NCBI GenBank assembly: GCA_048939465.1
Contig: JBHLPL010000001.1
Location: 23,562 to 87,561, forward strand
From: Promethearchaeota archaeon
Lineage (GTDB): Archaea > Asgardarchaeota > Odinarchaeia > Odinarchaeales > JBHLKK01
Length of the DNA: 64,000 nucleotides
Reading direction: 5' to 3'
Shown here: piece after piece, positions 36,932 to 62,927 of the stretch
How positions within the stretch are numbered: the stretch's first letter is position 1
Layout: each line of letters opens with the position of its first letter
Notes under the pieces: generated by a model
Database searches by the model: none
What the model saw: only the letters and a program-made list of their open reading frames with translations
Told to the model about the DNA's origin: nothing
Translations under genes and position numbers: made by a program

Positions 36932-37954
36932 TCATCGGATCATCACTATGAGTTTGATGGGACTGGCCAGATTCTTATCATTAACAAAAATGAGATCTCC
37001 TTCTTTCACTCCGGTATCTTTCAATACGATGCTATCCGGGACAATCTTGCCCTCGATAATAATCTCAGGATTCTGAAGGCCATAGGTCATTATCAGCCTG
37101 TTTTTTAATTCTTGAATGGGTTCTTCCAGGTTCACGACATATTTGACGCCTACGGTGCGGTACTTAGGACTGCAAACAACACAGCTCGGATTACGGACAA
37201 GCCTAATCTTTGTAAAAGACTGGCTCAATCCATCGTAAAATAGATAGTTGTCAAGCAGATCCTTGCGTTCTAAAATAATCTTTAGCGTTTCTTGTGCTTG
37301 GATTCCTCCGACTACTGTAGTTGTTGTGGAAATCATTGGAAATTTCTCCTTCTCTTGCTCTTTCTCTTTTCGCGCCTCTCCAGGAAGAGTACAGGCCTTC
37401 TGTAATCTTTCTTTTGGTATCAATGGTTGGCATTCCAGGCAGGGCGTTTCAAAGGGGATGATTACCTGAACGTTCCCCCACCAGCCAAATAATCCTCCAT
37501 GAATTAGAGGCTTATTCAAGTGAACACACATGGAATTCAGCCATCTGCGTGCCTCAAAAGTATCTAAGCCTTCCACGATGACCGAACTTCTCTGGTAGAC
37601 TTCTTTATCTATCGACCGCATATCCTTCATATAGGTACTTACCTTGACTTCCGGATTGAGTTTCTCAAGGAATTCCTCAGCAGCCTCCACTTTCAATCTT
37701 CCAATATCTTCTTCTCTGAAAAGTATTTGTCGGTTCAAATTCGAAAGCTCAATTGTGTCGTTGTCTATAAGAATCAACTTTCCTATTCCCATCAACGCCA
37801 GATCAAGAGCAACTACCGAGCCTAAAGCCCCCACTCCTACGACCAAAACCGTTGAATTGCGAATCAATCCTTGGTCCCATTCTTCGAGAAGTTCCTGTCT
37901 ATGATAACGACCTTCTCCTTCTTTCAAGCCTGCCCCCTCCTGAGGTGTTTCCAA
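36932..37954 (-). CDS. ubiquitin-activating E1-like enzyme (ThiF/MoeB/UBA family) with C-terminal beta-grasp-like extension
   Basis: Rossmann nucleotide motif VLVVGVGALGSVVALDLALMGIGKLILIDNDTIELSNLNRQ; catalytic region; two CxxC zinc pairs (TPCLECQ, PSCVVCSP); ~90-aa C-terminal extra domain. Confidence 0.8.
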   Translation of the reverse strand: METPQEGAGLKEGEGRYHRQELLEEWDQGLIRNSTVLVVGVGALGSVVALDLALMGIGKLILIDNDTIELSNLNRQILFREEDIGRLKVEAAEEFLEKLNPEVKVSTYMKDMRSIDKEVYQRSSVIVEGLDTFEARRWLNSMCVHLNKPLIHGGLFGWWGNVQVIIPFETPCLECQPLIPKERLQKACTLPGEARKEKEQEKEKFPMISTTTTVVGGIQAQETLKIILERKDLLDNYLFYDGLSQSFTKIRLVRNPSCVVCSPKYRTVGVKYVVNLEEPIQELKNRLIMTYGLQNPEIIIEGKIVPDSIVLKDTGVKEGDLIFVNDKNLASPIKLIVMIR

Positions 37955-38364
37955 GTAGCATACCTTTTGATATACTCTTTTACTTTCTCCTTGAATTCTC
38001 TTGGCGACTCACGCATTTCCTTTGCAGCCACTCGATTCAGAGGGTCGTGAGGGTTGGGAAAGCTCAGGACGTTTCTTATGGCCTCGATTACGCCAACTAA
38101 ATTTATGCTTGGAGACCAATCTTTCCCCAGAATGCCCAGACATATTCTTCCCTCCCTGGTGATATTTGGATGCCAAATTGGAGTCAAGAACCGAGCTTTG
38201 GGAGGTTTAAATGGATAGCTTCTGTCTACTTCTAACTCGATTTGGAAGACCCCTCCATCGTAAACACTGGTACCTAGAATGAATCCACGCCATTTTGTGA
38301 GGTCTCCACTTAGCGGTTGAAATGAAGGTTCCTCCTCCTCTATGCTCTTAGCTTCAAGTGCCAA
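37924..38364 (-). CDS. ubiquitin-conjugating enzyme E2 (UBC fold, catalytic Cys present)
   Basis: FKPPKARFLTPIWHPNITREGRICLGILGKDWSPSINL: canonical HPN motif and active-site Cys; overlaps E1 by 31 nt. Confidence 0.8.
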   Translation of the reverse strand: MALEAKSIEEEEPSFQPLSGDLTKWRGFILGTSVYDGGVFQIELEVDRSYPFKPPKARFLTPIWHPNITREGRICLGILGKDWSPSINLVGVIEAIRNVLSFPNPHDPLNRVAAKEMRESPREFKEKVKEYIKRYATWKHLRRGQA

Positions 38365-38540
38365 GCGCTCTAAGAATGCCTCTCTGTCTAAAATCTTTCC
38401 ATACCTCCCTCTGAATATGTAAAATCACAAAGAAATAAGTATGTGAAAAATATTAAAACCTTATAGTTCAGGATCGATCCTCCTGAATGATACGGCCTTC
38501 TATCCTCCAGATGAAAGATCCTAAGCGAAATAGAAAGTAT

Positions 38541-38783
38541 TTAAGGATCTCCTCCTTCGGTTCTAGTAATAAGATACACCTTATCTCTTTCGACGCACCC
38601 TGCTTCTTTAAGTGTCGTACTATCCAGCTGTTCCATACCTTTGAATGCAAGGACAAAGGTTGCTTCTGGTATACGTCTCTGTCTGGCAATTATTCTCTTG
38701 AGTTCACCGAATGAAATATTAGGCGCCACATCAAGTGTGGTCTTCATTCCACCAATTGCAGAGACAATCTCTACCTCCATCAT
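38541..38783 (-). CDS. ubiquitin-like beta-grasp protein with C-terminal GG-DP (pro-ubiquitin)
   Basis: alignable to ubiquitin over its length (MEVEIVSAIGGMKTTLDVAPNISFGELKRIIARQRRIPEATFVLAFKGMEQLDSTTLKEAG..LITRTEGG) and ends ..TEGGDP. Confidence 0.65.
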   Translation of the reverse strand: MMEVEIVSAIGGMKTTLDVAPNISFGELKRIIARQRRIPEATFVLAFKGMEQLDSTTLKEAGCVERDKVYLITRTEGGDP

Positions 38784-38798
38784 AAATCACCCCAATTA

Positions 38799-39038
38799 CT
38801 ATTTTACCATAAGATGTCTAGTGGAGAGTTTTCTTTTGCAGAAGGGACATTGGCCCTTCGTCTTAACCCATTCCAGCAGTTCAATCTTGTGAGCTTGGCT
38901 TCCGCAGTATGGACAGTATATTGTCTTCTCGCCGGGTCTTATTGGCAGAAGGCAAACGATGCACCTTTCTGGCTCCCAAAGCCACTCTCCTAAGACTCTA
39001 ACTTGCTTTATTACGAATCTGTCAGCTGCCTTCGACAT
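38799..39038 (-). CDS. Cys-rich RING-like zinc-finger protein (candidate E3)
   Basis: CIVCLLPIRPGEKTIYCPYCGSQAHKIELLEWVKTKGQCPFCK: CxxC-x12-CxxC-x4-H-x15-CxxC; paralogous to N-terminus of the next gene. Confidence 0.5.
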   Translation of the reverse strand: MSKAADRFVIKQVRVLGEWLWEPERCIVCLLPIRPGEKTIYCPYCGSQAHKIELLEWVKTKGQCPFCKRKLSTRHLMVK

Positions 39039-39181
39039 TTAGTATCTCCAAAGAAGATTAATTAAGAACACTATTAAATACTTTTGCGAATGCCCCCACT
39101 CGGGGCAGTTCAGACTCTTTGCTCTGAATTGATCATCTCCTACAGCCTTGGAATTGCAGATTAGTCGAAAAACCAACAGAG

Positions 39182-39913
39182 CTAACCCCCCAAAACCTCT
39201 TCAAACATATCAAGCAAAACATAGCGAGTTGAGGGATCAATGGCAACAGTTCCATAAGTTGGCACACCCAATAGTCTTCCCACAAGTTCTGGGTCCAATG
39301 AGTGGGGAAGGTCTTGTTTGTTTGCAATTGCAACAACCTTTGCATCAGGAACACGTTCTTGGACGAGGCTCATGATTCTCTTCCTGGTCCTGGCTACACT
39401 CGTTACAGACGAGTCCGTAACAACGATGATAATATCTGAGCCCCTGATCATTACGTCCCAGAATCGACCAAATCGTTCTTGTCCAGCGAAATCCCACACG
39501 ATCACTTTTACTGGCGTTTCCACCCCTTCGAGATTTTTGATATTGACCATTAGGGTAGGAGTATGGTTTATGGGAACTTCTTCATCAAAAAGCAATTTCA
39601 GCAGTGTTGTCTTGCCTGCACCGCCAAATCCCAAAAAGGAGACCTTAATGATCCTCATTAGCTGGCTTACGGAAAGTCTCATCTTACAGAAGGGACATTT
39701 ACCTTTGGTCTTAACCCATTCAAGTATTTCTCTTCTGTGAGCAATACATCCACAGTTTGGGCAGTCTATTGTCTTATCGTTAGGTCCTATTGGCAGAAGG
39801 CATACTATGCAATTCTTCGCTCCCACTTTTTCCACCCAGTCTTCCGATCTGTGGATATTGCAGAGCGTCAAATCGATTAGGAAATCCTGTCTCTCTTCAC
39901 TGGGCCACCTCAA
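39182..39913 (-). CDS. RING-like zinc finger fused to small GTPase
   Basis: N-terminal CIVCLLPIGPNDKTIDCPNCGCIAHRREILEWVKTKGKCPFCK; GTPase G1 GFGGAGKTTL, G3 WDFAGQERF, G4 ANKQDL. Confidence 0.7.
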   Translation of the reverse strand: MRWPSEERQDFLIDLTLCNIHRSEDWVEKVGAKNCIVCLLPIGPNDKTIDCPNCGCIAHRREILEWVKTKGKCPFCKMRLSVSQLMRIIKVSFLGFGGAGKTTLLKLLFDEEVPINHTPTLMVNIKNLEGVETPVKVIVWDFAGQERFGRFWDVMIRGSDIIIVVTDSSVTSVARTRKRIMSLVQERVPDAKVVAIANKQDLPHSLDPELVGRLLGVPTYGTVAIDPSTRYVLLDMFEEVLGG

Positions 39914-44324: not shown

Positions 44325-44939
44325 TCATGACCTGCTTTCCTTTAGTTTCTTAATTTCTTTTTCCAGCTCTGAGACCTTCTTCTCCGGTGCTGGAAGAGCA
44401 ATACCTGTTTCAACAGTTATCTCCTGATCGATTTCGGTCAACGTTTTTTCAATTTCCTTATCACTAATCTCTTGCGAAACCGTGATTTCGAGTCCTGATT
44501 CAGCGATCTCTTTCGACACCTCAAATTGCTGTAGCTGACCTTCAACTTCTTTAATCAATTTGGCTATCTTTGGTACCTTCACAGCGTTCTTAAGTCCCCC
44601 AAGGACGTTACGGAGACTACCTAATATTTTGGACAAATCAGTAACAGATTCGCTTTGTCTGAGTTTTACAATTAGTCCCTCTATGGTCAATCTGTAGTTG
44701 TCAATGCCAACTGCCCACTTCTGAAATTGCAGGTAATGCTTTGCGTACGTCTTTGCAGCCTCATTATTGCCCTTGATACGTTGAGTTCGAGCTTTAGTAC
44801 GGCTCTTGTCGCCTTCTCTTTCCAGTTGCATCCTTTGTCTATCGAGTTTCCGTGTGAGCAAATCCAACTGAAAAATGGCCTTCTCAAGCCTTTTTCTCTT
44901 AGACCCCCCTAACCAGTCAAACAAACGGCCTAACGACAA
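44325..44939 (-). CDS. ESCRT-III (Snf7/CHMP family; Vps2/24/46-like)
   Basis: 204 aa; basic N-terminal helices (KRKRLEKAIFQLDLLTRKLDRQRMQLERE...KGNNEAAKTYAKHYLQ) and acidic C-terminal helices with E/I-rich tail; Snf7-like charge asymmetry. Confidence 0.6.
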   Translation of the reverse strand: MSLGRLFDWLGGSKRKRLEKAIFQLDLLTRKLDRQRMQLEREGDKSRTKARTQRIKGNNEAAKTYAKHYLQFQKWAVGIDNYRLTIEGLIVKLRQSESVTDLSKILGSLRNVLGGLKNAVKVPKIAKLIKEVEGQLQQFEVSKEIAESGLEITVSQEISDKEIEKTLTEIDQEITVETGIALPAPEKKVSELEKEIKKLKESRS

Positions 44940-45100: not shown

Positions 45101-46264
45101 TTGGGATTGATGTCTGATAAGCTGTTCAAATACGCCACCCAGATGGCGAAGGAAGCTGTGAAACTTGACAAGCAAGGCAAACAGAAGCTGGCTGTACAGA
45201 AATATATTCATGCGGCCGATATCTTGATGAGGTTTCTGAAATTAACCGAGAATCCCGCACTGAGAAAAGTATGTTATGAAAAGGCGGAGCAGTATGTGCA
45301 AAGAGCTAAAGAACTACAAGGTGTAACACCAGGTCTGCCGGCAGTATCAGAAAAAGCAGCGGGGAAAGCGCTGACCAAGGAAGATCAAGCCCTCCAAGAA
45401 GCAATCTCGGATACCATAATCACTGAGAAACCAAGTGTTGAATGGGAAGACGTAGCAAATCTAGAGACGGCAAAACAAGCCTTGAGAGAGGCTGTTATCT
45501 TACCGATGCTCAGACCAGATATTTTTACTGGTGCAAGGGAACCTTGGCGTGGATTATTGTTGATCGGACCACCCGGATGTGGAAAAACACTGCTCGCAAA
45601 AGCTGTGGCGAACGAATGCAACGCAACATTCTTCAGCGCTGACGCAGCCTCTTTGGTTTCAAAGTGGCTGGGAGAATCGGAAAAACTTGTAAGCACATTA
45701 TTTACCGTTGCACGAAGTAGCTCCCCTTCCGTTGTGTTCATCGACGAAGTGGATGCTTTGGCAACAGTTAGATCGGGTGATGAGGTTGGAGGTGAGCGGA
45801 GAATGAAGACGCAGCTATTAATAGAAATGGATGGGGTTCGAAAACGAAAGGGAGAGCAAGTAGTAGTTCTTGGCGCCACGAACAGGCCATGGGATCTTGA
45901 CCCGGGTTTTCGTAGAAGGTTCGAAAAAAGAATTTATGTGCCCCTTCCTGATAAGGAAGGCCGTCGCGAGATATTTAAGATTCACGTCAGAGGAATTGAA
46001 ATAGCTTCAGATGTTGATTTTGATGAACTAGCGACTCTTACTGAGGGATACTCCGGCTCAGATATTGCGCTGATATGTAGGGATGCTGCCATGATGCCAA
46101 TACGTGAACTGGATACCGCAGGCACGTTGACTAGGAAAGATATCAAAGTTCGATCGGTAGATCGTGAGGATTTTCTGAAGTCCATGAAAAAGGTTAGGCC
46201 AACTGTTTCACCAGACGAACTGGAGAAATACGAGGAATGGACCAAAGAATTCGCATCAGAATGA
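45101..46264 (+). CDS. vps4: Vps4-like AAA ATPase (N-terminal MIT domain)
   Basis: MIT-like three-helix N-terminus (LDKQGKQKLAVQKYIHAADILMRFLKL...AEQYVQRAKELQ); AAA Walker A GPPGCGKTLLAKAVA; Walker B VVFIDEVD; second region of homology. Confidence 0.85.
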   Translation: MGLMSDKLFKYATQMAKEAVKLDKQGKQKLAVQKYIHAADILMRFLKLTENPALRKVCYEKAEQYVQRAKELQGVTPGLPAVSEKAAGKALTKEDQALQEAISDTIITEKPSVEWEDVANLETAKQALREAVILPMLRPDIFTGAREPWRGLLLIGPPGCGKTLLAKAVANECNATFFSADAASLVSKWLGESEKLVSTLFTVARSSSPSVVFIDEVDALATVRSGDEVGGERRMKTQLLIEMDGVRKRKGEQVVVLGATNRPWDLDPGFRRRFEKRIYVPLPDKEGRREIFKIHVRGIEIASDVDFDELATLTEGYSGSDIALICRDAAMMPIRELDTAGTLTRKDIKVRSVDREDFLKSMKKVRPTVSPDELEKYEEWTKEFASE

Positions 46265-46278
46265 ACTGGTGATATATA

Positions 46279-47025
46279 TTGTCGGTAAGGGAAAAGCCAC
46301 GTAAAAAAGCTGGGAAGTCTCAAAAGGAAGAAACTGACAAGAAGGAGCGAATCAAAGAAGAGCTTGAGGAACTCAAGGAAGAAGTTGAAACAATGGTGGA
46401 GGCAGAAGAAGCTGAGACAATAGAAGAGGTTGAGAAAATCCAAGAGCCTAGCGCTAGGCAACTTCCGAAGGCGGTTGCTGAGGAAATCTCCTCTGAATTG
46501 GAGAAGATCTGTAACTTATATGAATGGGTTGCAAATCCTGAACAAGTCAGATGGATGTATTGGATGCCCTCCAATAAAGAGCATATTGATTCATGGAGAG
46601 ACGAATGGGCTGATTTCTTGTTTCAATGGGCCCGAGCAAAAATCCTTCATATAGTAACACTGGTCTTGCTTATGGGTGAACACCCATTTGATAAGTTATC
46701 TCCAAAGGTGGATTCGCTGAGAGTTATTATGAAAACCCTAGCTGAGAAGGATCTTGCTGAATTCTTGGATAATAAAGAAACCAGATTGCGAATATACTGG
46801 AGGACTCTTAATGAGTGGGCAGAAATAATCTATAACTGGGCACTCAATACCGGAAGAATGGATATAAGTGTTTTTGATGTTATTAATGACAGAGGGGAAA
46901 AGTGGGGCTTTCACACGCTGCCAGCGAAAGAAATTAGACTCATCTTCAGGATTATGGTAGAGCGTGGGTTGGCCCGTTGGATGGACGAGAAGAGAGGCCA
47001 TATTGAGATAAGAGTAGACTTTTGA
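46279..47025 (+). CDS. Vps25-like ESCRT-II subunit (tandem winged helix) with acidic N-terminal extension
   Basis: IYWRTLNEWAEIIYNWALNTGRMDISVFDVIND ~ human VPS25 IMWRRPEEWGKLIYQWVSRSGQNNSVFTLYEL; C-terminal HTLPAKEIRLIFRIMVERGLARWMDEKRGHIEI ~ HGLDEATLLRALQALQQEHKAEII..DGRGVKF. Confidence 0.6.
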   Translation: MSVREKPRKKAGKSQKEETDKKERIKEELEELKEEVETMVEAEEAETIEEVEKIQEPSARQLPKAVAEEISSELEKICNLYEWVANPEQVRWMYWMPSNKEHIDSWRDEWADFLFQWARAKILHIVTLVLLMGEHPFDKLSPKVDSLRVIMKTLAEKDLAEFLDNKETRLRIYWRTLNEWAEIIYNWALNTGRMDISVFDVINDRGEKWGFHTLPAKEIRLIFRIMVERGLARWMDEKRGHIEIRVDF

Positions 47026-50100: not shown

Positions 50101-51102
50101 TCGAACAGATTTGTTGATGAATACACAATTGCTGTTATATTTGAGAAATCGAATTATGAGGCAAGAACTGCTACATTCAATCTGAAGGTACTCGGGAGAC
50201 CCGCAGATTTTGAAACCGTCAGTTCATCCGTTTCAGCTGCTCACGGTAATGAGGCAACATTCAGCTTCCACATTTCAGATGCTCTAACCGGTCTTCCTCT
50301 TGAAAATGTGTCCATAGTCCTAGACTGTAGCATAAATCCGGCATATTTGTCTTGGATTAATGGTAGTGGATGGTATAACCTAACCATACTCACTGCAAAT
50401 CTTTCGCCCGGTTCATACGATATCAAATTGGTCATTACTCAATCAAACTACACAACTGAAGTCGAAAACGTTCATATGACCGTTGAATATGAAAGAATCC
50501 TTGGGATGCCTTGGCCTTCATTTATTCTAATGATTTCATTCATAGCTGGTGCCGTTGCTGCTACTGGGGGCCTTTTCAGATTCTACACTTGGAAGAAAGT
50601 ACCGCCTCTTGTCAGGAACATCAATAAGAGCCTCAAACACATGCAGCAAGGAGAAGTTGTAAACATAAAAAAGACGTTTCCAGACACAAAGGATAGGGAC
50701 TATGTTCTCGGAGAATTCCTGAACGAAGAGCTGGAGATTCTGGGAATAAGATCTGCAGCCTATGGGGAAGAAGGTTCTCAACTGCTCTCCATAGTTTCGG
50801 CGGCGACTTCATCCGAAACCGAAACAACGGAGTCTGAAACGCAGGTTATCAGGGCAGCGGAATCTGAGACTTTGCCTGAACCGGAAGCAACACAACCTGA
50901 AATGAAGGAATCTGAAGCAATGCCAAAAGAACCAGTCGAAGAACTTGAGGTAACCAAGGAACCTGAAATAGAGAAACCGGAGAAGAAAAAGCCTTACTCG
51001 GCAAAAGCCGGACCTAAGAGGCTAAAGACCAAGAAAACAGAAAAGAGAGAATCGAAATCAAGGTCAGGGAAGTCAAAGGCAAAAAACAAGGTGCAGAAAT
51101 AA
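47146..51102 (+). CDS. large N-glycosylation-sequon-rich surface protein (type I membrane topology, long cytoplasmic tail)
   Basis: signal peptide (LLISLVFTLFLISTLSSITVPPVTASP); >60 N-x-S/T sequons; beta-rich repeats; single TM (ILMISFIAGAVAATGGLF) near aa 1115; ~200-aa acidic then Lys-rich tail. Confidence 0.6.
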   Translation: MVVMQAKRKNLLISLVFTLFLISTLSSITVPPVTASPDTADWWNYNWNQRVPVMINTTGHNTSDIPIKIEGINFTQLLLDLGVGSPHDNNSVRVVEWNVASELNTELPSLFAPAGTYDSSSNAVGDVYWTMNGTTLENTNRTFYVYFDTTDAPGGPKSPPSYSVDPRLPEGIAYVRNAKDDISYESAQQLAAEYGLAQAALFNESVKSGSHYRSGSGWQNNSIDLVPDDYSMIILGSDSLDGGEIPGKLDIDSQFRSNLEAFIAGGGILVIQQITSSDPAQPLTGIQFTSSHGESYKKPLQQHEITTNPNNIRTENLNSLSDGFDKITDSTRYSSIANVTDNGGGPTGHRIRIIQRGAGYVIVEVLGWTSTGDIDKWKQIFENYLNYHINHTKDSLAITVGSQAEYSLINDVTVVVTNHEGLFVPDANVTMVNTTAQANNLSGYNQWALTDSNGQVFFPDVPDNNYNVTATYVTNMGDSTGILNDTFSNFNINYTQTLNLKVNITRLLVNITDVDNMTQYDLIPNWAEHYIVGLFNQSDGSPMANTTTTTLYESGGINWLVGELWWHNSSDNHVIKVLYEHPDYSNTLTLNETSNIQLDVSTSFNVNVSMTRLTVFARGYPTIDPLVNVVLELSNDTQAIANVTADDSGAVVFYWRTQPSQNYSIRAFYFDTLVSFIKFHESWSDWNESVSLPLPNATEKLIDIQLGAEYETDLVLTAFTPDVTYGDNVTVTVYFNVTSPSPRPVTGATARCYLRVGTTDIFMETMTEAGSGYYTLTFNTTHYGGIIGDENIEYRILVIVEKSGYTSPTPIFTDLTIRGLATTLDCSISPETIYWGDLITVDVTYEDLEDATVSYIIGSWDSGVFSDLGNGNYRTSIDTSKSSFWGDYILKITAEKPNYEMKYAEIALRINQIQTLINGSRILVTSPISVYAMEDSLIHFNYTTAGNIGINSTVHQYYWESISSGSGYGDLSYLGNGMYGLDFDTSNRFVDEYTIAVIFEKSNYEARTATFNLKVLGRPADFETVSSSVSAAHGNEATFSFHISDALTGLPLENVSIVLDCSINPAYLSWINGSGWYNLTILTANLSPGSYDIKLVITQSNYTTEVENVHMTVEYERILGMPWPSFILMISFIAGAVAATGGLFRFYTWKKVPPLVRNINKSLKHMQQGEVVNIKKTFPDTKDRDYVLGEFLNEELEILGIRSAAYGEEGSQLLSIVSAATSSETETTESETQVIRAAESETLPEPEATQPEMKESEAMPKEPVEELEVTKEPEIEKPEKKKPYSAKAGPKRLKTKKTEKRESKSRSGKSKAKNKVQK

Positions 51103-51175: not shown

Positions 51176-51922
51176 TTATGAGTTTTTACTTGCCTTGCCT
51201 CCTAGCCCGGGAAAGTAGTACTTTTCTCCTCTTGAATAGCTAGGATCCATTCTGGTAACCTTGGCTTTTTTTAATGCCTCTAATGCTCTTTTGACTCTGG
51301 TCTCGTTCCACCCGGTTTTCACCATGATTTCCTCAGGAGTCGTCCAGCCTTTCTCGCTTGCAATGTTCAATATCTCATTCTGATCATTTCCCAGCTCCAC
51401 AGAAATGAATTGAACAACCTTCACGTCTGACTTCAACTTCATGATTCCTGGTATCATATCTTCTTCTTCCATTTTCCTTATGGCCTTCATAACATCCTCT
51501 ACTGATATCTTTCCCTTGATCATTCCTGTGTTGACCAATAAAACAGCTTCTGGAATTGTCATAATTCCACCTGTTTCTTGCCTTCTCATCAGGGCTCTCT
51601 GATAAAGAAGCAAACCCAGTTTCTCATGATCAACTTTAGTTCTGAAAAATCCCTTCCTCACCACATCCTCTTCTCTCACAATCTGGGTAATAATAGCGCT
51701 TTTGGGAATACCGAACTTCTTTCTAATCTTTTCAACTTCCGAGCGGAACTCGGGATTTATGTCGAGCAGGATTCCATACTTCTTGACTATCTCTACCAGC
51801 TTTTCCCTCGTACGCTTGGCCATTTCAAGCTCGCTTGCCATATTCTGAAGTCTCAACTCAACGCCTTTTTCTTCCAAGGCTCGTTTTGCTCTCATCTCCT
51901 TCTCAATTTCGTAAAGACCCAA
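51176..51922 (-). CDS. Vps22-like ESCRT-II subunit (EAP30 domain)
   Basis: tandem winged-helix EAP30-like pattern: GGIMTIPEAVLLVNTGM...ISVEDVMKAIRKMEE...ILNIASEKGWTTPEEIMVKTGWNETRVKRALEALKKAKVTRMDPSYSRGEKYYFP. Confidence 0.55.
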   Translation of the reverse strand: MGLYEIEKEMRAKRALEEKGVELRLQNMASELEMAKRTREKLVEIVKKYGILLDINPEFRSEVEKIRKKFGIPKSAIITQIVREEDVVRKGFFRTKVDHEKLGLLLYQRALMRRQETGGIMTIPEAVLLVNTGMIKGKISVEDVMKAIRKMEEEDMIPGIMKLKSDVKVVQFISVELGNDQNEILNIASEKGWTTPEEIMVKTGWNETRVKRALEALKKAKVTRMDPSYSRGEKYYFPGLGGKASKNS

Positions 51923-52729
51923 TCAAACGCCCCCCTCGGACACTTCCTTCAGCTTAGCTTCAAAGTCTTTAAGCCATCTATCCGCTTGGAACCCAAGCCT
52001 TTCGGCCTCCTCTTCACTGACAGTCTCGCTTGGTTTTCGAGACTTAAGCCTGTCGCGCCATTCTTCAATCTCCTTGATAACCCAGTACTTCGCATTGAAT
52101 CCAGGAAATCTCTTCATAATACTCAGAAGCTCGTCTAGTCGTGGAACAAGCATATCAACTCTTGCTACGTCCTTCAGTCTTGTAAGATCCATCACAGTAA
52201 TCAGATTCGTTGTGATGTCGAGCGTTTTAGAAGCGACTGTTGCAGGAGAAGCTGTCAAAATCTCTAGAAGAGCGCCTGTCTCACCCTCTGCAAGTTTTAG
52301 TTTATTGATCGCCAAAGGAAACTCCCTTACTATTCCTTCATCTTCCAAGAACTTGGCAACGTCGATATTCAGTTCTTCCAATCTGCCTTTAGCCTTGAAT
52401 GCGCCTGTCATTAGCGCTCGGACTTGACGCTTGTACATTGCTGGCTCTATTCTGGCTTCCTTGAAACTCTCGATTATGGATTCCAGTGTTGCGATGCATG
52501 CATAGAGTTCTGCCTGTTTGTCAAGAACGTATTTTCTCTGGGAAGGACTGAGCCTCTGAAGTGCTTCAGACTCCCCCCCTCGAACCGACTCGCTTAGTGT
52601 CGATTTGTATTCCGACGCAGTTGAGCTGTTTTCAAGGGGCTCTTTTGGGGCTTCTTCTTTTTTCTTTTCCTTTCTTTTCTTTTCTGCCTCGGATGTTTCA
52701 CGCTTTCTGGTTACTTCCATCCCGTTCAC
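51923..52729 (-). CDS. Vps28-like ESCRT-I subunit
   Basis: AELYACIATLESIIESFKEARIEPAMYKRQVRALMTGAFKA ~ human VPS28 [42 protein letters not shown]; C-terminal ITVMDLTRL ~ ITVMDKLRL four-helix-bundle region. Confidence 0.6.
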   Translation of the reverse strand: MNGMEVTRKRETSEAEKKRKEKKKEEAPKEPLENSSTASEYKSTLSESVRGGESEALQRLSPSQRKYVLDKQAELYACIATLESIIESFKEARIEPAMYKRQVRALMTGAFKAKGRLEELNIDVAKFLEDEGIVREFPLAINKLKLAEGETGALLEILTASPATVASKTLDITTNLITVMDLTRLKDVARVDMLVPRLDELLSIMKRFPGFNAKYWVIKEIEEWRDRLKSRKPSETVSEEEAERLGFQADRWLKDFEAKLKEVSEGGV

Positions 52730-52750
52730 CAGCGAGTGAGAAAAAGAATA

Positions 52751-53548
52751 TTACTTCTTCAGTTCCTCAAGCTTCTTGGTAACCAAATACAAGTCTTTCT
52801 TATAACGTTTATAGAGCTTACCATACTCTACGTCGCTGATTTCGCCCGATTCGTACTTCATCTCGAGGTTTTGCAGGAGGTCCTCAGTTGCGATCTTTTC
52901 ACCCTCAAGGTCCAATATCCTCTCTTCTTTTGGGTCGCCAAGTTTGGGGGCCTCATGTTGGCCTGAAAGCGAAATGCTTCGAGCGTCCATCGCTCCGCGT
53001 ATTCTGGCCAGTTCCTCGTCCTTTTTCTGCATAACATCTCTCAATCTTAACGTTTCTCTCTCAAGGTTCAGAACCTTTGATTGGAGTTGTCTAACGCCTT
53101 CCGAAACCGCGGCTGTAGGTTCCAGAGCAGTTGTGGCTGTTGCGGGGGCAGAAACATATATGGGTCTGGGCGGCTTACGTGCAAAGAGACCTTTCAGTGT
53201 ATTGACAACCTGATGGATGTGATATTCTGGACGCCATTCGGAGAGTATTTTCAGGCTAACTTCTCCGGATTGCCTATTGATCTGGGGGTGATCTGTCGGC
53301 GTAATCATTTTCACACTAGGCGCTGACCTTGGAAAGTCATCAGGTAATGCTATCTCAACTTCGAATCTCCTCTTCGCGTGTTGTCCTCTACCCGGTATGG
53401 AACCTCTCCAAAGCCTCAGGTTTCCTCTGACTGGAGTAAATTCCTGCGCTCGTCTGTACATGAGTTGGGCTTCTTTAGCAACAATCAATTCAGCATCTTC
53501 AGACAAGTGATTGCCTCCCTTTTGGGTTTTTTCAAGAATAATTATCAA
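52751..53548 (-). CDS. UEV-domain protein (Tsg101/Vps23-like ESCRT-I subunit; catalytically inactive E2 fold plus coiled-coil stalk)
   Basis: UBC-fold region FPRSAPSVKMITPTDHPQINRQSGEVSLKILSEWRP with HP(N) motif but the E2 catalytic Cys replaced by Ser (EVSLKIL vs RICLGIL in the true E2 at 37924..38364); C-terminal coiled coil. Confidence 0.55.
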   Translation of the reverse strand: MIIILEKTQKGGNHLSEDAELIVAKEAQLMYRRAQEFTPVRGNLRLWRGSIPGRGQHAKRRFEVEIALPDDFPRSAPSVKMITPTDHPQINRQSGEVSLKILSEWRPEYHIHQVVNTLKGLFARKPPRPIYVSAPATATTALEPTAAVSEGVRQLQSKVLNLERETLRLRDVMQKKDEELARIRGAMDARSISLSGQHEAPKLGDPKEERILDLEGEKIATEDLLQNLEMKYESGEISDVEYGKLYKRYKKDLYLVTKKLEELKK

Positions 53549-53602: not shown

Positions 53603-54946
53603 TTATTTCAGAAACTTCTTTTCAAACGAATTGACTACTTCTTCAAGGTTTGGTCTACCAATCTCTTGGAGTTCGTACCTGACCCTTACAGTCGGTTTGT
53701 CAATTCTGATAATCCTGGTTAAATCTATTGGCGTTCCTATTACAACAACATCACAGTCGGCCGCATTGATCGTGTCCTCAAGATCTTTTATTTGCTCTTC
53801 GCCGTAGCCTACAGCAGGCAGCACTTTACCTATGTGTGGGTATTTCTCAAAAATCCTTTTGATAGATCCAGTGGAATAAGGACGGGGGTCAATAACTTCT
53901 GCTTCAAGTTCTCGAGCCATGATCATGCCCGCGCCGTAAGCCATACCGCCGTGTGTTACGCTCGGACCGTCTTCGATGACCAAAACCCGCCTTCCTTTTA
54001 TCGACTGATCTTTATCTATGGACTTCTTCATAACCGCCCTAATTATCGTTGCCTTTGGATTCACGTGTTCTATATTATTCCTCACATATTCTACGTTTTT
54101 TTGGGCCGCAGTATCTACCTTATTGATTATTACCACGTCTGCCATCCTGAGATTTGCCTCGCCAGGATGATAAGTAATCTCATGGCCTGGTCTGTGAGGA
54201 TCTGTTATCACGATATGTAAGTCGGGTTTGATAAATGGCAAGTCATTATTGCCTCCATCCCAAATAATTACGTCTGCCTCTGCCTCTGCCTCTCTCAGAA
54301 TCCTTTCATAATCTACGCCGGAATAAACTACAATTCCTTGTTCTATGTGTGGGGCATAATCTTCCCTTTCCTCAATTGTGCAGTCATATTTATCCAGATC
54401 TTCGAAAGTCGCAAATCTCTGACTTATTTGGTTTATTAAGTCTCCATAAGGCATTGGGTGCCTTATGACAACAGTGCGATATCCCTTACTCCGCAATATC
54501 CTACTCACTCTCCGCGTTGTTGGTGATTTTCCGGCTCCGGTTCTGACTGCGCACACAGAAATAACCGGTTTTCTGGATGTCAGTGCTGTGCTTTTGAGAC
54601 CCATCAGTCTGAAATCTGGGCCACATGAAAGCACGATAGAAGCTTTATGCATTACTTCCACATGAGAAAGATCACTGTATGCCAGAACTACTTGGTCTAC
54701 ATCATGTTCTTTTATTAGATTTGGCAAATCCTCCTCGGGATATATAGGAATCCCATTGGGGTAATTCGGACCAGCTAACTTGGGATGATACAATCTGTTG
54801 GCAATATTGGGTATTTGAGACGCTGTAAATGCGATGACGCGATATCTTTTGTCGTTCCTGAAGTATACGTTGAAATTGTGGAAGTCCCTTCCCGCAGCAC
54901 CCATTATGACTACTTTTATCTGTTTCACCAACCTCACCAACTTCAA
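53603..54946 (-). CDS. P-loop NTPase of the COG2403 / cyclic 2,3-diphosphoglycerate-synthetase-like family
   Basis: 447 aa; Walker A VCAVRTGAGKSPTT; family assignment from recollection, not verified. Confidence 0.4.
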   Translation of the reverse strand: MKLVRLVKQIKVVIMGAAGRDFHNFNVYFRNDKRYRVIAFTASQIPNIANRLYHPKLAGPNYPNGIPIYPEEDLPNLIKEHDVDQVVLAYSDLSHVEVMHKASIVLSCGPDFRLMGLKSTALTSRKPVISVCAVRTGAGKSPTTRRVSRILRSKGYRTVVIRHPMPYGDLINQISQRFATFEDLDKYDCTIEEREDYAPHIEQGIVVYSGVDYERILREAEAEADVIIWDGGNNDLPFIKPDLHIVITDPHRPGHEITYHPGEANLRMADVVIINKVDTAAQKNVEYVRNNIEHVNPKATIIRAVMKKSIDKDQSIKGRRVLVIEDGPSVTHGGMAYGAGMIMARELEAEVIDPRPYSTGSIKRIFEKYPHIGKVLPAVGYGEEQIKDLEDTINAADCDVVVIGTPIDLTRIIRIDKPTVRVRYELQEIGRPNLEEVVNSFEKKFLK

Positions 54947-55266
54947 CCCTATTTGATAGGAGACGGTCTACCAAAGATTGGGGATGAAAATTGCCGAGTA
55001 TTTATGTCCTTCTTCTTTATATATTTTTGACACTTGAAATTCCGGGCATTTCTAATTCCGAAATAGGAGAATCAGATCCTTGATCGGTAATCAGTGTATA
55101 TGGATTCGATCTATCAAGATTCCAAAAAAAGGAAAATCTTCTTGACGCTCTTCCCTATCGGCGGGTAGAATTGGCGCAGTCTGCGCACCCAGAAAAGAAG
55201 CAAACTACTCCCCCCTTCAGGAAGGAGTCTCCTTGAGGTGGTTTAGATGGATTCTCCAATTAATGA

Positions 55267-55791
55267 CTACTCACTCTGGGTTTTCAACTTCGTAAAAAGT
55301 TGCTTTAACTCCATGTTTAGTGCTCTTCGGACATTTACTGGACTGATAGGTATTGCGGGTCTGGGCGGCTCAGCTGCTCCTTGTGCGGCCACAGGAGTAG
55401 CTCCGCCTGTAGCTGCGGGTGCAACTCCAGGAGCAGTAGCGGGGGTAGGTGACGGTGAAGCTGAGGCAGACGTAGAGGCTGGAGCCGTTGGCGATACTGC
55501 TGAAGGTCTTATTGCGGTCTCTGCAGGTTTCCCAGCGGCCCCTTGGGAAACGGTACTTGCAGTGACTGGAAGAGAGACTCGAGACTCAATCGAGTTAATC
55601 CTACTCTCTATTACGCCTATTTTGATTTCGAGGTTCTTGGACAGACTATTCAGGTTTTGCTCCAGCATATCAATGGCGTTTATAACGATTTCCATAACTC
55701 TGCTTAGTATCGTACTAATTTCCTGGATACGCTTTGGTTGTGACAGCGTTTCATCAATAAGCCTTACGAAGTCTTCTCCCATATCGAACAC
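55267..55791 (-). CDS. coiled-coil protein with Ala/Pro/Thr-rich low-complexity segment
   Basis: N-terminal heptad pattern (LEQNLNSLSKNLEIKIGVIESRINSIESRV); APAST-rich middle; competing plus-strand ORF 55247..55810 covers the same biased DNA. Confidence 0.35.
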   Translation of the reverse strand: MFDMGEDFVRLIDETLSQPKRIQEISTILSRVMEIVINAIDMLEQNLNSLSKNLEIKIGVIESRINSIESRVSLPVTASTVSQGAAGKPAETAIRPSAVSPTAPASTSASASPSPTPATAPGVAPAATGGATPVAAQGAAEPPRPAIPISPVNVRRALNMELKQLFTKLKTQSE

Positions 55792-55806
55792 CGTCTATGA
55801 TTATCA

Positions 55807-59838: not shown

Positions 59839-61644
59839 ATGAAGACTGTGAGAATCTGCAATTTTTGTGGAAGCAGAGAAGCAACTCATTATTGTGAGGA
59901 GTGTGGAGCCTCATTCTGCAGCAGGTGCGCAAGAAAGAAGAAGATCCAAATTAGCATATGTGTAAATTGCGGTGCATCTGTTGACAAACTCAGAAAACAG
60001 AGTAGTATTACGGCCTGCAATGACTGTAATCCGTCAAGCACAAAATCTGCGATAAAATACATAACCCTATGCCCTGATTGCTCTTCAAAGACGGTAGTAC
60101 GCATCAAGAAAAAAAACCATGATTTGTTGATCAAACTCAAAAGTGCAGTTTCAAGTCTTATATCCGGCTACTATATCCTAAAACAATTTTTGGCTGAAGT
60201 GAATACCGTACGGCGCAGGATAGTAGCAATGAGGTATTATGGATTTAGACAGTATCCTGAACTCGAAAAGACATTGATTGCTGTCTATTCTGAAGTTCAT
60301 ACGTTGGGTCAGAACTTTGTCAATACAGTATTCAAAACATTACAGGGAGTAGATTCTGAATTGCTTGTGGTTCTAAGGAAGAGACCATGGGACTCCAAAG
60401 ATTTTCCCTCGGTAGAATCTCTGACAGAACAACTTAGAAAAGATGGACAGATGACTCAGAAAGACTTGATGAACAGACTAACTGATTTAAGACAGCTATT
60501 TATCGACCTTCTTCCTCTAATTGGGTCTCTGGAGTACTTCAGACAAGTGTACGATAGCATAGGGGAGCATTTAATCCTTGATAAGTATGAGAGAATCATC
60601 TGTGCGTTTAGCAAGGTGTCTCTGTCATCGAACTCATCCAAGCGGAGCAAGAATAACGGAACCTTGGTTCTTACAAACCGCAGAATAGTTCTTCATCAAC
60701 AAGCAAAGGGAAAAGGGGCTTTCAATGTAATTGGGGCAAGATTGACTGATTTAAACTCCTATCATGTCGATGAAACAGATGGAAGAATAACTCTGGAAAC
60801 AACGAATGGTAGAACGGAGTTCCTTGTTTCACAGAATGCTGCGAGTTTATTCAAGAGATCTCTAGAGGTAACCGACCGATACGACGGGAATTTAGTAGAT
60901 TTGGATCGCTTAAATCGTCTCATTAATATCCAGTGGGTTTCTTCGGAGTTATATCGTCTGAATAAGAAACTGCAGCTAGAGGTTCTCAATGTGCTGGGGG
61001 AGAAACCCAGACTTCTCGATTCAGCAGTTGTTGCTACATCTGTCTTTAGAGAGTACTCAAATGACACTCCTGAGCCACCGCAGGAGGGGCCAAATGTCTC
61101 GTTTGGGATCAAGAAAGACGATCCCAAAGAGGCCATGAATTCGGAATCTTATAAGGGAACCAAGCCGGCAGGCGTTATTCGTCGCATTGTGAATTTATTT
61201 AAGAATAATAGAAATCGTGAATTATCCGATCTAGTTCTGGAAATTGGCAGAAAGAACAGAACCAATACGGGCGGGATGGTTCCTTTAGCTGAAGTGTACC
61301 TATCGATAAAAGAACTCAGACCTAATCGGAACATCGATGTTGAGGAAGTTGAAAAAGCAATTGAAACACTTAAAGAAAAAGGACTTATAGTTGATTTTAG
61401 GGAACATAACTCTGGAATAAAAGTTGTTGAGTTCTTTCCATTAGAGTTCAGTAGTGATAAGAATACTGTTATAGATTTGGCAGCAGAAAGAGGTCACCTG
61501 ACGCTTGAGGATGTCATACGCAATACGGGATGGTTAGGGGTCAGAGCTGCAAGAGCACTTAAAGGGTTAGAGAAAATTGGGATAGCCAAGCTTGACCCTA
61601 CATATTCTAGGGGAAAGCGTTGGTATTTCCCATACCTGAAATGA
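59839..61644 (+). CDS. Vps36-like ESCRT-II subunit (N-terminal zinc ribbons, GLUE/PH-like domain, C-terminal EAP30-like winged helices)
   Basis: CNFCGSREATHYCEECGASFCSRCA / CVNCGAS / CNDCNPS / CPDCSSK zinc-ribbon pairs; GRAM/GLUE-like GTLVLTNRRIVLHQQAKGKGAFNVIG...ITLETTNGRTEFLV; C-terminus TLEDVIRNTGWLGVRAARALKGLEKIGIAKLDPTYSRGKRWYFP paralogous to 51176..51922 C-terminus. Confidence 0.55.
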   Translation: MKTVRICNFCGSREATHYCEECGASFCSRCARKKKIQISICVNCGASVDKLRKQSSITACNDCNPSSTKSAIKYITLCPDCSSKTVVRIKKKNHDLLIKLKSAVSSLISGYYILKQFLAEVNTVRRRIVAMRYYGFRQYPELEKTLIAVYSEVHTLGQNFVNTVFKTLQGVDSELLVVLRKRPWDSKDFPSVESLTEQLRKDGQMTQKDLMNRLTDLRQLFIDLLPLIGSLEYFRQVYDSIGEHLILDKYERIICAFSKVSLSSNSSKRSKNNGTLVLTNRRIVLHQQAKGKGAFNVIGARLTDLNSYHVDETDGRITLETTNGRTEFLVSQNAASLFKRSLEVTDRYDGNLVDLDRLNRLINIQWVSSELYRLNKKLQLEVLNVLGEKPRLLDSAVVATSVFREYSNDTPEPPQEGPNVSFGIKKDDPKEAMNSESYKGTKPAGVIRRIVNLFKNNRNRELSDLVLEIGRKNRTNTGGMVPLAEVYLSIKELRPNRNIDVEEVEKAIETLKEKGLIVDFREHNSGIKVVEFFPLEFSSDKNTVIDLAAERGHLTLEDVIRNTGWLGVRAARALKGLEKIGIAKLDPTYSRGKRWYFPYLK

Positions 61645-62279: not shown

Positions 62280-62927
62280 TTACTCTTTTTCTTTTTCCTC
62301 TTCTGGTATGTCTTCTTTAAGCCCTTTCTTAATATCTTCAAGTTCCTTCCGTATTTTGTCCTTCTTCTTTTCAGCGACAGCCTTCTCTTTTTCGGTGGGA
62401 ATCTCAGGTAACTCTTCTTCTATGGCCACTTCCTCTTGAAGTTTTGCTAACTCCCTCTCTACGTCAATGTCTTCGCCTTCATCCAAAGCTGTGGCACTTA
62501 ACATCTCACTGGTTTTCTCTATCTCATCAACCAGTTGTTCAGTTTTTAGCATAACTTCAGTAGCTTTCTCACTTGACATAAGTCTTCTTGCTTCTTCAAG
62601 TTGTTCAAGACCAACTTCAAGGGCACGTCCCATGTCGGCAGTATCTCTAGCAGTCTCGATCATATCAATAACATCTTCTAGGCTGCCTACCTGTCTATGA
62701 TAACGATTCATCCATGTGGTATATCTTTTCCATTTTCGAAGATGTGTCCTTGCCCCATCTGTGTTTCCTTGCCTTACAAGCTCTCTTGCTCTCTGCTTGC
62801 TTTCTCCTGCCTTTCTTTCAAATCCACGAACTCTGAGTGTCATCTTGTTGATTGTTGCACGCATTTCTGTAACTGCTTCGTCTCTGCTTTCCTTTTTCTT
62901 GGGGAATAGCTTCCTCAGAAAACCCAA
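62280..62927 (-). CDS. ESCRT-III (Snf7/CHMP family; Vps20/32/60-like)
   Basis: 215 aa; N-terminal MGFLRKLFPKKK basic start, basic helices (ARELVRQGNTDGARTHLRKWKRY), acidic C-terminal half ending in EEL..EKEKE; Snf7 organisation. Confidence 0.6.
   Translation of the reverse strand: MGFLRKLFPKKKESRDEAVTEMRATINKMTLRVRGFERKAGESKQRARELVRQGNTDGARTHLRKWKRYTTWMNRYHRQVGSLEDVIDMIETARDTADMGRALEVGLEQLEEARRLMSSEKATEVMLKTEQLVDEIEKTSEMLSATALDEGEDIDVERELAKLQEEVAIEEELPEIPTEKEKAVAEKKKDKIRKELEDIKKGLKEDIPEEEKEKE

Follow-up and report, generated by a model that had tools for sequence, protein, structure and literature searches.

The three-gene locus and its reading frames

Three genes lie side by side on the minus strand of a 64,000-nt stretch of archaeal DNA (the window), raising the question of whether they encode an ESCRT-I module physically linked to ESCRT-II, and whether this module could be the upstream half of a ubiquitin-ESCRT pathway. 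The original prediction had read their products, in gene order, as a Tsg101-like UEV protein, Vps28 and an EAP30 protein. In the ORF listing, the three minus-strand frames span 52751-53548 (265 aa), 51923-52729 (268 aa) and 51176-51922 (248 aa), which reproduces exactly the tight packing originally described, with gaps of 21 nt between UEV-Vps23 and Vps28 and of 0 nt between Vps28 and EAP30. The Vps28 and EAP30 ORFs abut, the TTG start of the latter directly adjoining the TGA stop of the former; the sequence GAGGGGGG lies upstream of this start.

The true starts of the first two genes are probably located slightly inside their ORFs. For UEV-Vps23, whose ORF reaches the first in-frame TTG at 53548, the likely start is the TTG at 53506, with GGGAGG 7 nt upstream, giving a protein of 251 aa. 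For Vps28, whose ORF reaches a GTG at 52729, it is the ATG at 52720, giving 265 aa and widening the first gap to 30 nt. On public contigs encoding identical proteins, gene callers used these inner starts. The coordinates of the three genes and of the other features discussed below are collected in Table 1.

The HMM check proposed with the prediction (UEV, VPS28, EAP30) was run with Pfam and placed all three proteins above the curated cut-offs, while an NCBIfam search of the same three proteins gave no meaningful match. Comparing the trio with one orthologous locus (79-88% protein identity), we counted 98, 108 and 79 differences at third codon positions of the three genes, compared with 17-43 at the first and second positions. 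Since the substitutions fall mostly on third positions, all three are genes under purifying selection. The possibility that they are chance ORFs was rejected on the grounds of this bias and of Pfam scores far beyond chance. Scans of the whole window for tRNA genes and Rfam families were empty.

The order and strand UEV-Vps23, Vps28, EAP30 were found in all six related Asgard loci compared, from Hodarchaeota-like, Jordarchaeales/LC30 and Atabeyarchaeia genomes, a small sample because a contig scan with Vps28 patterns gave five loci only. Together, the spacing of 0-30 nt and the conserved order suggest that the three genes are probably transcribed together as an operon. GenBank lists the exact proteins of the trio under a MAG of a 'Promethearchaeota archaeon', two of the three being annotated as 'hypothetical'. 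The nearest named relatives of the source lineage are labelled Hodarchaeota.

Table 1. Features of the locus and of its surroundings (positions in the window)
Feature	Coordinates	Strand	Evidence
UEV-Vps23 gene, 251 aa, predicted ESCRT-I ubiquitin-binding subunit	52751..53506	-	Pfam UQ_con + UEV
UEV domain, residues 1-115, truncated UBC fold	53162..53506	-	AlphaFold pLDDT >90, Foldseek
Stalk helix, residues 134-180	52967..53107	-	AlphaFold
C-terminal helical hairpin, residues 192-250, Vps23 core / 'steadiness box'	52757..52933	-	AlphaFold, family-level Pfam
Vps28 gene, 265 aa	51923..52720	-	Pfam VPS28, PDB match
Vps22-like EAP30 gene, 248 aa, ESCRT-II subunit	51176..51922	-	Pfam EAP30, PDB match
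Paralogue (601 aa) of the Vps22-like protein, perhaps a second ESCRT-II stalk subunit	59839..61644	+	Pfam, AlphaFold, Foldseek
Vps25 (ESCRT-II), directly downstream of Vps4	46279..47025	+	Pfam ESCRT-II 47.5 bits
Vps4 AAA ATPase (MIT + AAA + Vps4_C)	45101..46264	+	Pfam AAA 143, MIT 46, Vps4_C 48 bits
ESCRT-III Snf7 family, copy 1	44325..44939	-	Pfam Snf7 52 bits
ESCRT-III Snf7 family, copy 2	62280..62927	-	Pfam Snf7 71.7 bits
Ubiquitin cassette, whole	36932..39913	-	Pfam
E1 of the cassette	36932-37954	-	Pfam ThiF 228 bits
E2 with catalytic Cys	37924-38364	-	Pfam UQ_con 130 bits
Ubiquitin-like protein	38541-38783	-	Pfam ubiquitin 29 bits
RING protein	38799-39038	-	Pfam zf-RING_2 29.5 bits
RING-Arf-like GTPase fusion	39182-39913	-	Pfam Arf 73 bits + zf-RING_2 25.5 bits

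The first gene encodes a cysteine-less E2 variant with a Vps23-type C-terminus

The product of the first gene (GenBank MFX1485561.1, 'ubiquitin-conjugating enzyme E2 variant', in its 251-aa form) had been described as a UBC fold with an HP motif and a Ser in place of the catalytic Cys. Re-inspection for a retained catalytic Cys found no Cys in the whole protein. Residues 73-75 read HPQ, and the former catalytic position is taken by Ser84, which aligns with the catalytic Cys of the active E2 of the window ('GEVSLKIL' vs 'GRICLGIL') and with the residue mutated in the active site of Ubc13 C87S (2gmi). In 33 relatives this column is never Cys; S, D, N, R, H, T, K and Q occur there. In the AlphaFold model (pLDDT 83.8), a truncated UBC fold is followed by the stalk helix and, at the C-terminus, by a helical hairpin. 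Residues 97-110 form the last helix of the UEV domain, and the model lacks the two C-terminal E2 helices; the UQ_con match stops at profile position 111 of 140.

The resemblance to Tsg101 holds in part. The Cys-less UBC fold, the stalk and the hairpin are as expected of a Tsg101-like protein, while the domain itself is nearer to canonical E2s than to the Tsg101 UEV, as judged both by sequence and by predicted fold: of the Tsg101-specific UEV features, which include an additional N-terminal helix and a longer beta-hairpin, the Pfam UEV profile gave 29.4 bits, barely over its cut-off of 27 and far under the 62.1 bits of UQ_con, and the best Foldseek matches of the model were E2 enzymes (E about 2e-7), not Tsg101.

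Behind the UEV domain, a Pro/Ala/Thr-rich, disordered linker (residues 119-134, pLDDT <50) leads to the modelled stalk helix, which agrees with the coiled-coil stalk proposed originally, and then to the steadiness-box hairpin, formed by helices H192-220 and H225-250 (pLDDT >90). Pfam Vps23_core was found in 16 of 17 members of the UEV-Vps23 family (best 5.3e-9); in the hairpin of the window's own protein it was not detected at E<=1, the only match being CdvA at 19-20 bits, and for this reason the assignment was made at the family level. The Vps23-core identity of this hairpin is supported by its relatives and by the model. A profile of the stalk and hairpin of the family, searched against the PDB, matched the Tsg101 headpiece (6vme_B, E 0.014) and yeast Vps23 (2p22_A, E 0.6) in a search dominated by generic coiled coils (GCN4 constructs), and we take these matches as supporting, not decisive. 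By analogy with the UEV domains of Heimdall, Odin and other Asgard archaea, which bind ubiquitin in vitro (Hatano et al., 2022; PMC9192718), UEV-Vps23 would be a catalytically dead E2 domain acting as a non-covalent ubiquitin binder.

The second and third genes encode Vps28 and a Vps22-like protein

The second product (GenBank MFX1485560.1, 'hypothetical protein') matched Pfam VPS28 (62 bits) along positions 2-188 of the 188-position profile, comprising both the N- and the C-domain, and a PDB search paired its C-terminal four-helix domain with that of Xenopus Vps28 (2j9w, E 8e-4). The predicted likeness to Vps28 in both domains was thereby confirmed, and profile methods, whose failure had been named as grounds for refutation, recover the family over its full length. 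An E/K/S-rich extension occupies residues 1-65 and is followed by the N-terminal core and the C-terminal domain; Hodarchaeota-like and Atabeyarchaeia orthologues share this extension, which those of Jordarchaeales lack. The alignment of 14 orthologues contains 40 invariant columns.

For the third product, the predicted EAP30-type tandem winged helices were supported by Pfam EAP30 (60.5 bits, profile positions 2-211 of 219) and by an end-to-end alignment of residues 6-239 with human SNF8/Vps22 (2zme_A, E 5.8e-12). Yeast Vps22 was matched at 1.7e-6, and Vps36 at 1.8e-4. An N-terminal helical region, with a 'GLxEI' motif at the N-terminus that is kept in orthologues, precedes the tandem winged helices. 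By these sequence comparisons the protein is nearer to Vps22 than to Vps36, an affinity that agrees with the published phylogeny (PMC9192718).

A ubiquitin cassette and the remaining ESCRT partners are present in the window

The ubiquitin cassette that had been placed 13 kb from the trio was recovered about 13 kb away, with a ThiF-type E1, an E2 retaining its Cys, ubiquitin and RING proteins. The ubiquitin-like protein has an Ala at the Ile44-equivalent position and a GG-DP tail, so that its recognition by the UEV domain may differ in detail. Vps25, Vps4 and two Snf7-family ESCRT-III genes are also encoded in the window (Table 1), and no Vps37 or Mvb12 gene was detected in the 64 kb.

The present analysis shows the domain identities and the fold, the loss of the catalytic Cys, the conservation of the gene order and the presence of every partner in the window. 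We consider it very likely that the trio is the upstream half of an Asgard ubiquitin-ESCRT pathway, probably co-transcribed. With ubiquitin binding, stoichiometry, assembly order and membrane remodelling taken from the published biochemistry of relatives and from eukaryotic ESCRT, the UEV domain would bind ubiquitin non-covalently and, through the flexible linker, connect to the stalk helix and steadiness-box hairpin, which would assemble with the homologous hairpin of the Vps28 N-terminal half into an ESCRT-I core. The C-terminal helical domain of Vps28 would then contact the Vps22-like protein of the abutting gene, which would bind Vps25; Vps25 would nucleate filaments of the two ESCRT-III proteins, to be remodelled by Vps4. 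In relatives, Vps28 interacts with its partners in SEC and two-hybrid assays, the Odin Vps23 is a dimer binding one Vps28 (two Vps23 per Vps28 were measured in Odinarchaeota), Asgard Vps22 homodimerises, and two-hybrid data link Vps28/Vps23 to Vps22 and Vps25 to ESCRT-IIIB (PMC9192718). That the Vps28 gene is neighboured by those of both its partners in 6 of 6 loci lends indirect support to such binding here. The process served in Asgard archaea could be vesicle budding, division or repair.

A 601-aa EAP30 paralogue carries zinc ribbons and a PH domain

A second EAP30 protein of the window, 601 aa long (AlphaFold pLDDT 82.5), combines three Zn ribbons with a helical bundle, a PH domain (residues 246-345) and, behind a disordered linker, tandem winged helices; its ribbons, PH domain and winged helices make up the same set of domains as in yeast Vps36. 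It matched Pfam EAP30 with 44.6 bits (residues 460-585), whereas Vps36_ESCRT-II (GLUE) gave 22 bits, under the cut-off of 24.1, and it shares 37% identity over 127 aa with the EAP30 protein of the trio. Foldseek retrieved Vps22 (4.6e-8), Vps36 (1.1e-5), PH domains and the GLUE domain 2hth_B (5.9e-3), the latter ranking 49th among the PH matches.

Orthology of this protein to Vps36 was not adopted, since its winged helices resemble Vps22 and the EAP30 protein of the trio more closely. In the published view, Vps36 arose only during eukaryogenesis. A word-index homology search returned three close relatives only, and an exhaustive search was then used, in which both halves of the protein co-occur only in its own cluster. 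This makes an independent, convergent fusion more likely than ancestry of Vps36. The Vps22-like protein may pair with the 601-aa paralogue instead of homodimerising, although we consider such pairing rather unlikely; if it occurred, an archaeon would possess an asymmetric, eukaryote-like ESCRT-II with an arm that binds membrane or ubiquitin, and the paralogue would be a functional counterpart of Vps36.

Alternative readings of the locus

The same proteins might do another job, namely recruit ESCRT-III for division or membrane repair in the manner of CdvA in TACK archaea, with ubiquitin binding being dispensable or purely regulatory and not a cargo-sorting signal. The weak likeness of the UEV-Vps23 C-terminus to CdvA (below the cut-off of 30 bits) is in line with this, as are the published proposal that CdvA and the Vps23 steadiness box descend from a common ancestor (PMC10936438; bioRxiv 2023.07.25.550441) and the distance of the ubiquitin cassette, which is not adjacent to the trio. 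CdvA itself has no UEV domain, recruits CdvB directly and serves cell division, and the gene context here is ESCRT-I/II, not cdvABC. Against this reading, the UEV domain is kept in all relatives, ubiquitin is bound by Asgard UEVs in vitro, and a full E1/E2/ubiquitin/RING set lies in the same neighbourhood. A role in division or repair also overlaps with the ubiquitin-ESCRT reading, as eukaryotic ESCRT does both sorting and division, and as a separate explanation we consider it improbable.

Much less probable still is that UEV-Vps23 is not an inert reader of ubiquitin but an oxyester-forming E2 using Ser84, or an Mms2-like chain-building cofactor of the neighbouring E2. By sequence, its best matches in the PDB are indeed Ubc13, among them the C87S mutant, on which ubiquitin is trapped as an oxyester; the family keeps the HP motif without change or almost so, and Ser is found in four of the four closest relatives. 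Elsewhere in the family, though, the Ser84 position is occupied by the other residues listed above, so that no nucleophile is conserved there, and on this basis an active Ser-based E2 was rejected. The loss of the two C-terminal E2 helices likewise speaks against catalysis or cofactor function, and the fusion to a Vps23 stalk and hairpin, with Vps28 always next, fits ESCRT-I and not a chain-building cofactor.

Discussion

The reading of the trio is correct, and its arrangement has already been published for Asgard archaea. The family, the gene order and the biochemistry of relatives were described by Hatano et al. (2022; PMC9192718), Lu et al. (2023; bioRxiv 10.1101/2023.07.25.550441) and Makarova et al. 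(2024; PMC10936438), and the finding is for this reason ordinary. The closest known systems are the Asgard UEV-Vps23, Vps28 and Vps22-like proteins already described (asCOG005829/asCOG007313 in Lu et al., 2023), with the same architecture of all three proteins and nothing essential differing. The co-directed order vps23-like, vps28-like, vps22-like (PMC10936438) and the adjacency of Vps25 and Vps4 (PMC9192718) are shared with published loci, and a ubiquitin cassette with Yip1 and a small GTPase is common to this window and to Hodarchaeia as published. The differences are that Vps23 and Vps28 are separate genes, but fused in Heimdallarchaeota AB_125; that Vps28 is full length, but split in some Asgard lineages, and bears a charged N-terminal extension of 65 residues; and that the UEV-Vps23 gene does not adjoin ubiquitin but lies 13 kb away.

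With eukaryotic ESCRT-I (Tsg101/Vps23, Vps28, Vps37, Mvb12) the locus shares the Cys-less UBC-fold domain, stalk and steadiness-box hairpin, as well as the N-terminal core and C-terminal helical domain of Vps28. In contrast to it, the window is without a detected Vps37 or Mvb12 and the UEV without clear Tsg101-specific features, and nothing points to a role in P(S/T)AP binding; where eukaryotes pair Vps23 with Vps37, Asgard relatives use a Vps23 homodimer (PMC9192718). With respect to eukaryotic ESCRT-II (Vps22/SNF8, Vps36, two copies of Vps25), the alignment of the Vps22-like protein covers the helical N-terminus and both winged helices, and Vps25 is present. The literature reports no Asgard Vps36 orthologue and proposes Vps22 homodimers; besides the Vps22-like protein, the window encodes the 601-aa EAP30 paralogue, which bears Zn ribbons and a PH domain.

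Asgard ESCRT-I/II genes are a main line of evidence for ubiquitin-directed membrane remodelling before eukaryotes. This locus is a further clean and complete example, with ubiquitin cassette, ESCRT-I, ESCRT-II, two ESCRT-III genes and Vps4 inside 27 kb, and it brings no new principle. Its practical value is that the subunits are separate and full length and form a compact set with which to attempt reconstitution, and that it improves the annotation of GenBank 'hypothetical' proteins, and the 601-aa Zn-ribbon/PH/winged-helix paralogue is the only element of the locus that could alter the picture of ESCRT-II evolution.

Gene Structure and Coding Status of the Trio

The window derives from an Asgard archaeon, and GenBank holds the exact proteins of the trio on a 96.7-kb contig labelled 'Promethearchaeota archaeon', where UEV-Vps23 (MFX1485561.1) is annotated as 'ubiquitin-conjugating enzyme E2 variant' and the other two (MFX1485560.1 and MFX1485559.1) as 'hypothetical protein'; the closest named relatives carry the label Candidatus Hodarchaeota. 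The ORF list agrees exactly with the original prediction of three minus-strand genes with gaps of 21 nt (UEV-Vps23/Vps28) and 0 nt (Vps28/EAP30), the TGA stop of Vps28 abutting the TTG start of the EAP30 gene, just upstream of which lies GAGGGGGG. For the first two genes the most likely starts are internal to the ORFs, namely TTG at 53506 for UEV-Vps23 (251 aa; GGGAGG 7 nt upstream) and ATG at 52720 for Vps28 (265 aa), since gene callers chose them on public contigs with identical proteins and the N-termini of relatives align with both. A TATA-like TTTTTATG is found about 45 nt upstream of the UEV-Vps23 start.

In a comparison with one orthologous locus (79-88% protein identity), codon positions 1/2/3 showed 23/21/98 differences for UEV-Vps23, 43/31/108 for Vps28 and 25/17/79 for EAP30, a third-position excess indicating coding sequence under purifying selection. 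This pattern and the Pfam scores excluded chance ORFs.

Features tabulated over 27 kb of the window (trio as in the ORF list)
Feature	Position	Strand	Length
Yip1-domain protein	36079-36864		
E1	36932-37954		
E2	37924-38364		
Ubiquitin-like protein	38541-38783	-	
RING protein	38799-39038		
RING-Arf-like GTPase	39182-39913	-	
Gene between cassette and Snf7 copy 1	40075-40623	+	
Gene(s) between cassette and Snf7 copy 1	40634-44282	-	
Snf7, copy 1	44325-44939		
Vps4	45101-46264		
Vps25	46279-47025		
CarboxypepD_reg protein	47146-51102	+	1318 aa
EAP30 (trio ORF 3)	51176-51922	-	248 aa
Vps28 (trio ORF 2)	51923-52729	-	268 aa
UEV-Vps23 (trio ORF 1)	52751-53548	-	265 aa
P-loop protein	53603-54946	-	447 aa
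Ala/Gly-rich ORF	55247-55810	+	187 aa
Overlapping ORF	55267-55791	-	174 aa
Longin-Arf-like GTPase	57903-58760	+	
Second EAP30 protein	59839-61644	+	601 aa
Snf7, copy 2	62280-62927		

UEV-Vps23 Lacks the Catalytic Cysteine

Protein 1 (UEV-Vps23) matched Pfam UQ_con (62.1 bits) and UEV (29.4 bits, cut-off 27) and contains no cysteine at all, in agreement with the predicted UBC fold with HP motif and Ser at the catalytic position. Its 'HPQINRQSGEVSLKIL' aligned to 'HPNITREGRICLGIL' of the window's active E2, which places Ser84 at the catalytic Cys, and the top PDB sequence match was the Ubc13 C87S mutant, Ser aligned to Ser. No C occurs in the catalytic column among 33 family members (S, D, N, R, H, T, K or Q instead), and the HP-motif His is invariant. 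An AlphaFold model built from this alignment (mean pLDDT 83.8) has a UBC fold whose last helix is 97-110, so that the two C-terminal E2 helices are absent, and Foldseek retrieved E2 enzymes from the PDB (E ~2e-7). A disordered Pro/Ala/Thr linker (119-134) leads to the long helix 134-180, corresponding to the anticipated coiled-coil stalk, and to a helical hairpin (192-220 and 225-250). Of 17 family members, 16 have a Pfam Vps23_core match in this hairpin, the best at 5.3e-9, and only the protein of the window gave none at E<=1; with the family profile, weak hits to the Tsg101 headpiece of human (6vme_B, E 0.014) and to Vps23 of yeast (2p22_A, E 0.6) stood amid generic coiled coils.

Vps28 and the Vps22-Like Protein

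The profile searches upheld the remaining two assignments, all three expected families being matched in Pfam. Neither outcome that would have contradicted the original prediction, a retained catalytic Cys in protein 1 or a Vps28 similarity lost in profile searches, was seen. Protein 2 matched VPS28 (62 bits) over profile positions 2-188 of 188, so both Vps28 domains are present, and it matched the solved Xenopus Vps28 C-terminal domain (PDB, E 8e-4). Its first ~65 residues form an E/K/S-rich extension common to Hodarchaeota-like and Atabeyarchaeia orthologues and absent in Jordarchaeales. Protein 3 matched EAP30 (60.5 bits, 2-211 of 219); its residues 6-239 align with human SNF8/Vps22 (E 5.8e-12), and the match to Vps36 (E 1.8e-4) was poorer than to human or yeast Vps22 (the latter E 1.7e-6).

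Conservation and Neighbourhood

Order and strand of the three genes were kept in all six related loci examined (Hodarchaeota-like, Jordarchaeales/LC30 and two Atabeyarchaeia genomes). From this and the tight spacing, which support the predicted operon, we infer co-transcription. One locus, L008 (Atabeyarchaeia CP147779.1), carries a TnpB/Cas12f-like gene (11850-13088) between Vps28 and EAP30, an insertion splitting the otherwise tight trio. In the Helarchaeota locus L006 (GCA_013375455.1), the gene after UEV-Vps23 is a 153-aa ORF (10888-11349), itself followed by Vps4; the ORF matches the Vps28 family profile (6.7e-21), has no Pfam match on record, and seems to be a split or shortened Vps28.

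The layout is exactly that described for Asgard archaea by Makarova et al. (2024; PMC10936438), the UEV-Vps23 family was defined by Lu et al. (2023; bioRxiv 10.1101/2023.07.25.550441), and Asgard ESCRT proteins were characterised biochemically by Hatano et al. (2022; PMC9192718); given these descriptions, the ESCRT-I/II reading is correct but already known. The ubiquitin cassette predicted nearby was also recovered (E1, E2, ubiquitin-like and RING, 36932-39038), and the window shares Yip1 and a small GTPase with the Hodarchaeia cluster of Lu et al. (2023), which includes Yip1 and a Rab-like GTPase. Two unusual small GTPases fuse an Arf/Roc-like domain to a RING finger and to a longin domain, respectively.

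With its GG-DP end, the ubiquitin-like protein would require C-terminal trimming, and it has Ala at the position of eukaryotic ubiquitin Ile44, a residue central to UEV binding. The stretch between the cassette and Snf7 copy 1 encodes an 868-aa HerA-like ATPase, an overlapping protein of 351 aa without family match and a coiled-coil protein of 182 aa; Lu et al. (2023) report from such clusters an uncharacterised protein with a coiled coil, asCOG005522.

Vps25 and the EAP30 gene flank the gene for the 1318-aa protein, which carries a CarboxypepD_reg domain, a single membrane helix at the C-terminus, a K/E-rich tail and numerous N-x-S/T sequons; this protein is kept in the Hodarchaeota-like locus L005 and absent at the corresponding place in L008. 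CarboxypepD_reg is fused directly to EAP30 in other Asgard proteins (P0113, P0120, P0144). The P-loop protein, encoded on the trio's own strand 96 nt upstream, has weak LpxK/CobW matches and is kept there in the closest relatives only. Further upstream, two long ORFs overlap almost completely on opposite strands, neither with a Pfam match. Public gene calls chose the plus strand; the minus-strand ORF, which lies 15 nt downstream of a VTT-domain gene and has a Pro/Ala linker between a helical N-terminus and a C-terminal helix, looks more protein-like.

A Second EAP30 Protein

Six kilobases from the trio, the 601-aa protein (MFX1485568.1, 'hypothetical' in GenBank) comprises three CxxC zinc ribbons, a helical bundle, a PH domain, a disordered linker and a tandem winged-helix module (model pLDDT 82.5), the domain set of yeast Vps36. 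In Pfam, EAP30 scored 44.6 bits, and Vps36 GLUE reached 22 bits, short of that family's cut-off; Foldseek retrieved Vps22 (4.6e-8), Vps36 (1.1e-5), the GLUE domain of human (5.9e-3, TM-score 0.62 on target) and many PH domains. Full-length Vps36 was not found in Asgard archaea by Hatano et al. (2022), who placed its origin in eukaryogenesis. Three results speak against orthology to Vps36: the winged helices share 37% identity with the neighbouring Vps22-like protein, they are closer to Vps22 than to Vps36, and when 1.84 billion representatives were searched exhaustively, the N- and C-halves matched different protein sets, joined only in the protein's own cluster. We therefore read it as a rare, lineage-restricted fusion. 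Its N-half family shares the domain order Zn ribbon, coiled coil, PH with the Asgard 'Znr_PH_CC_SB' proteins (Makarova et al., 2024). The 601-aa protein may serve as a Vps36-like partner of the trio's Vps22-like protein.

Proposed Mechanism

That protein 1 acts as a Ser-based E2 or an Mms2-like cofactor is very improbable, as the residue at the catalytic position varies and the domain invariably continues into the Vps23 stalk, with Vps28 coming next. A role in division or repair, with ubiquitin merely a regulator, draws on a weak CdvA similarity and overlaps the main model; we consider it rather unlikely.

The analysis shows the domain identities, the folds, the loss of the nucleophile and the kept adjacency, and all downstream partners are present. 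In relatives, Asgard UEV domains bind ubiquitin via its hydrophobic patch, an odinarchaeotal Vps23 dimer binds one Vps28, Vps22 forms homodimers, and two-hybrid data connect Vps28/Vps23 with Vps22, and Vps25 with ESCRT-IIIB (Hatano et al., 2022; PMC9192718); UEV-ubiquitin affinity by SPR is micromolar or tighter (Lu et al., 2023). By analogy with this biochemistry, the most likely course is that UEV-Vps23 would read ubiquitin-like marks, its hairpin would pack against that of Vps28, the Vps28 C-terminal domain would engage the Vps22-like protein, and Vps25 would nucleate ESCRT-III, to be recycled by Vps4. The direct junction of the Vps28 and Vps22-like genes would promote the coupling of translation and assembly.
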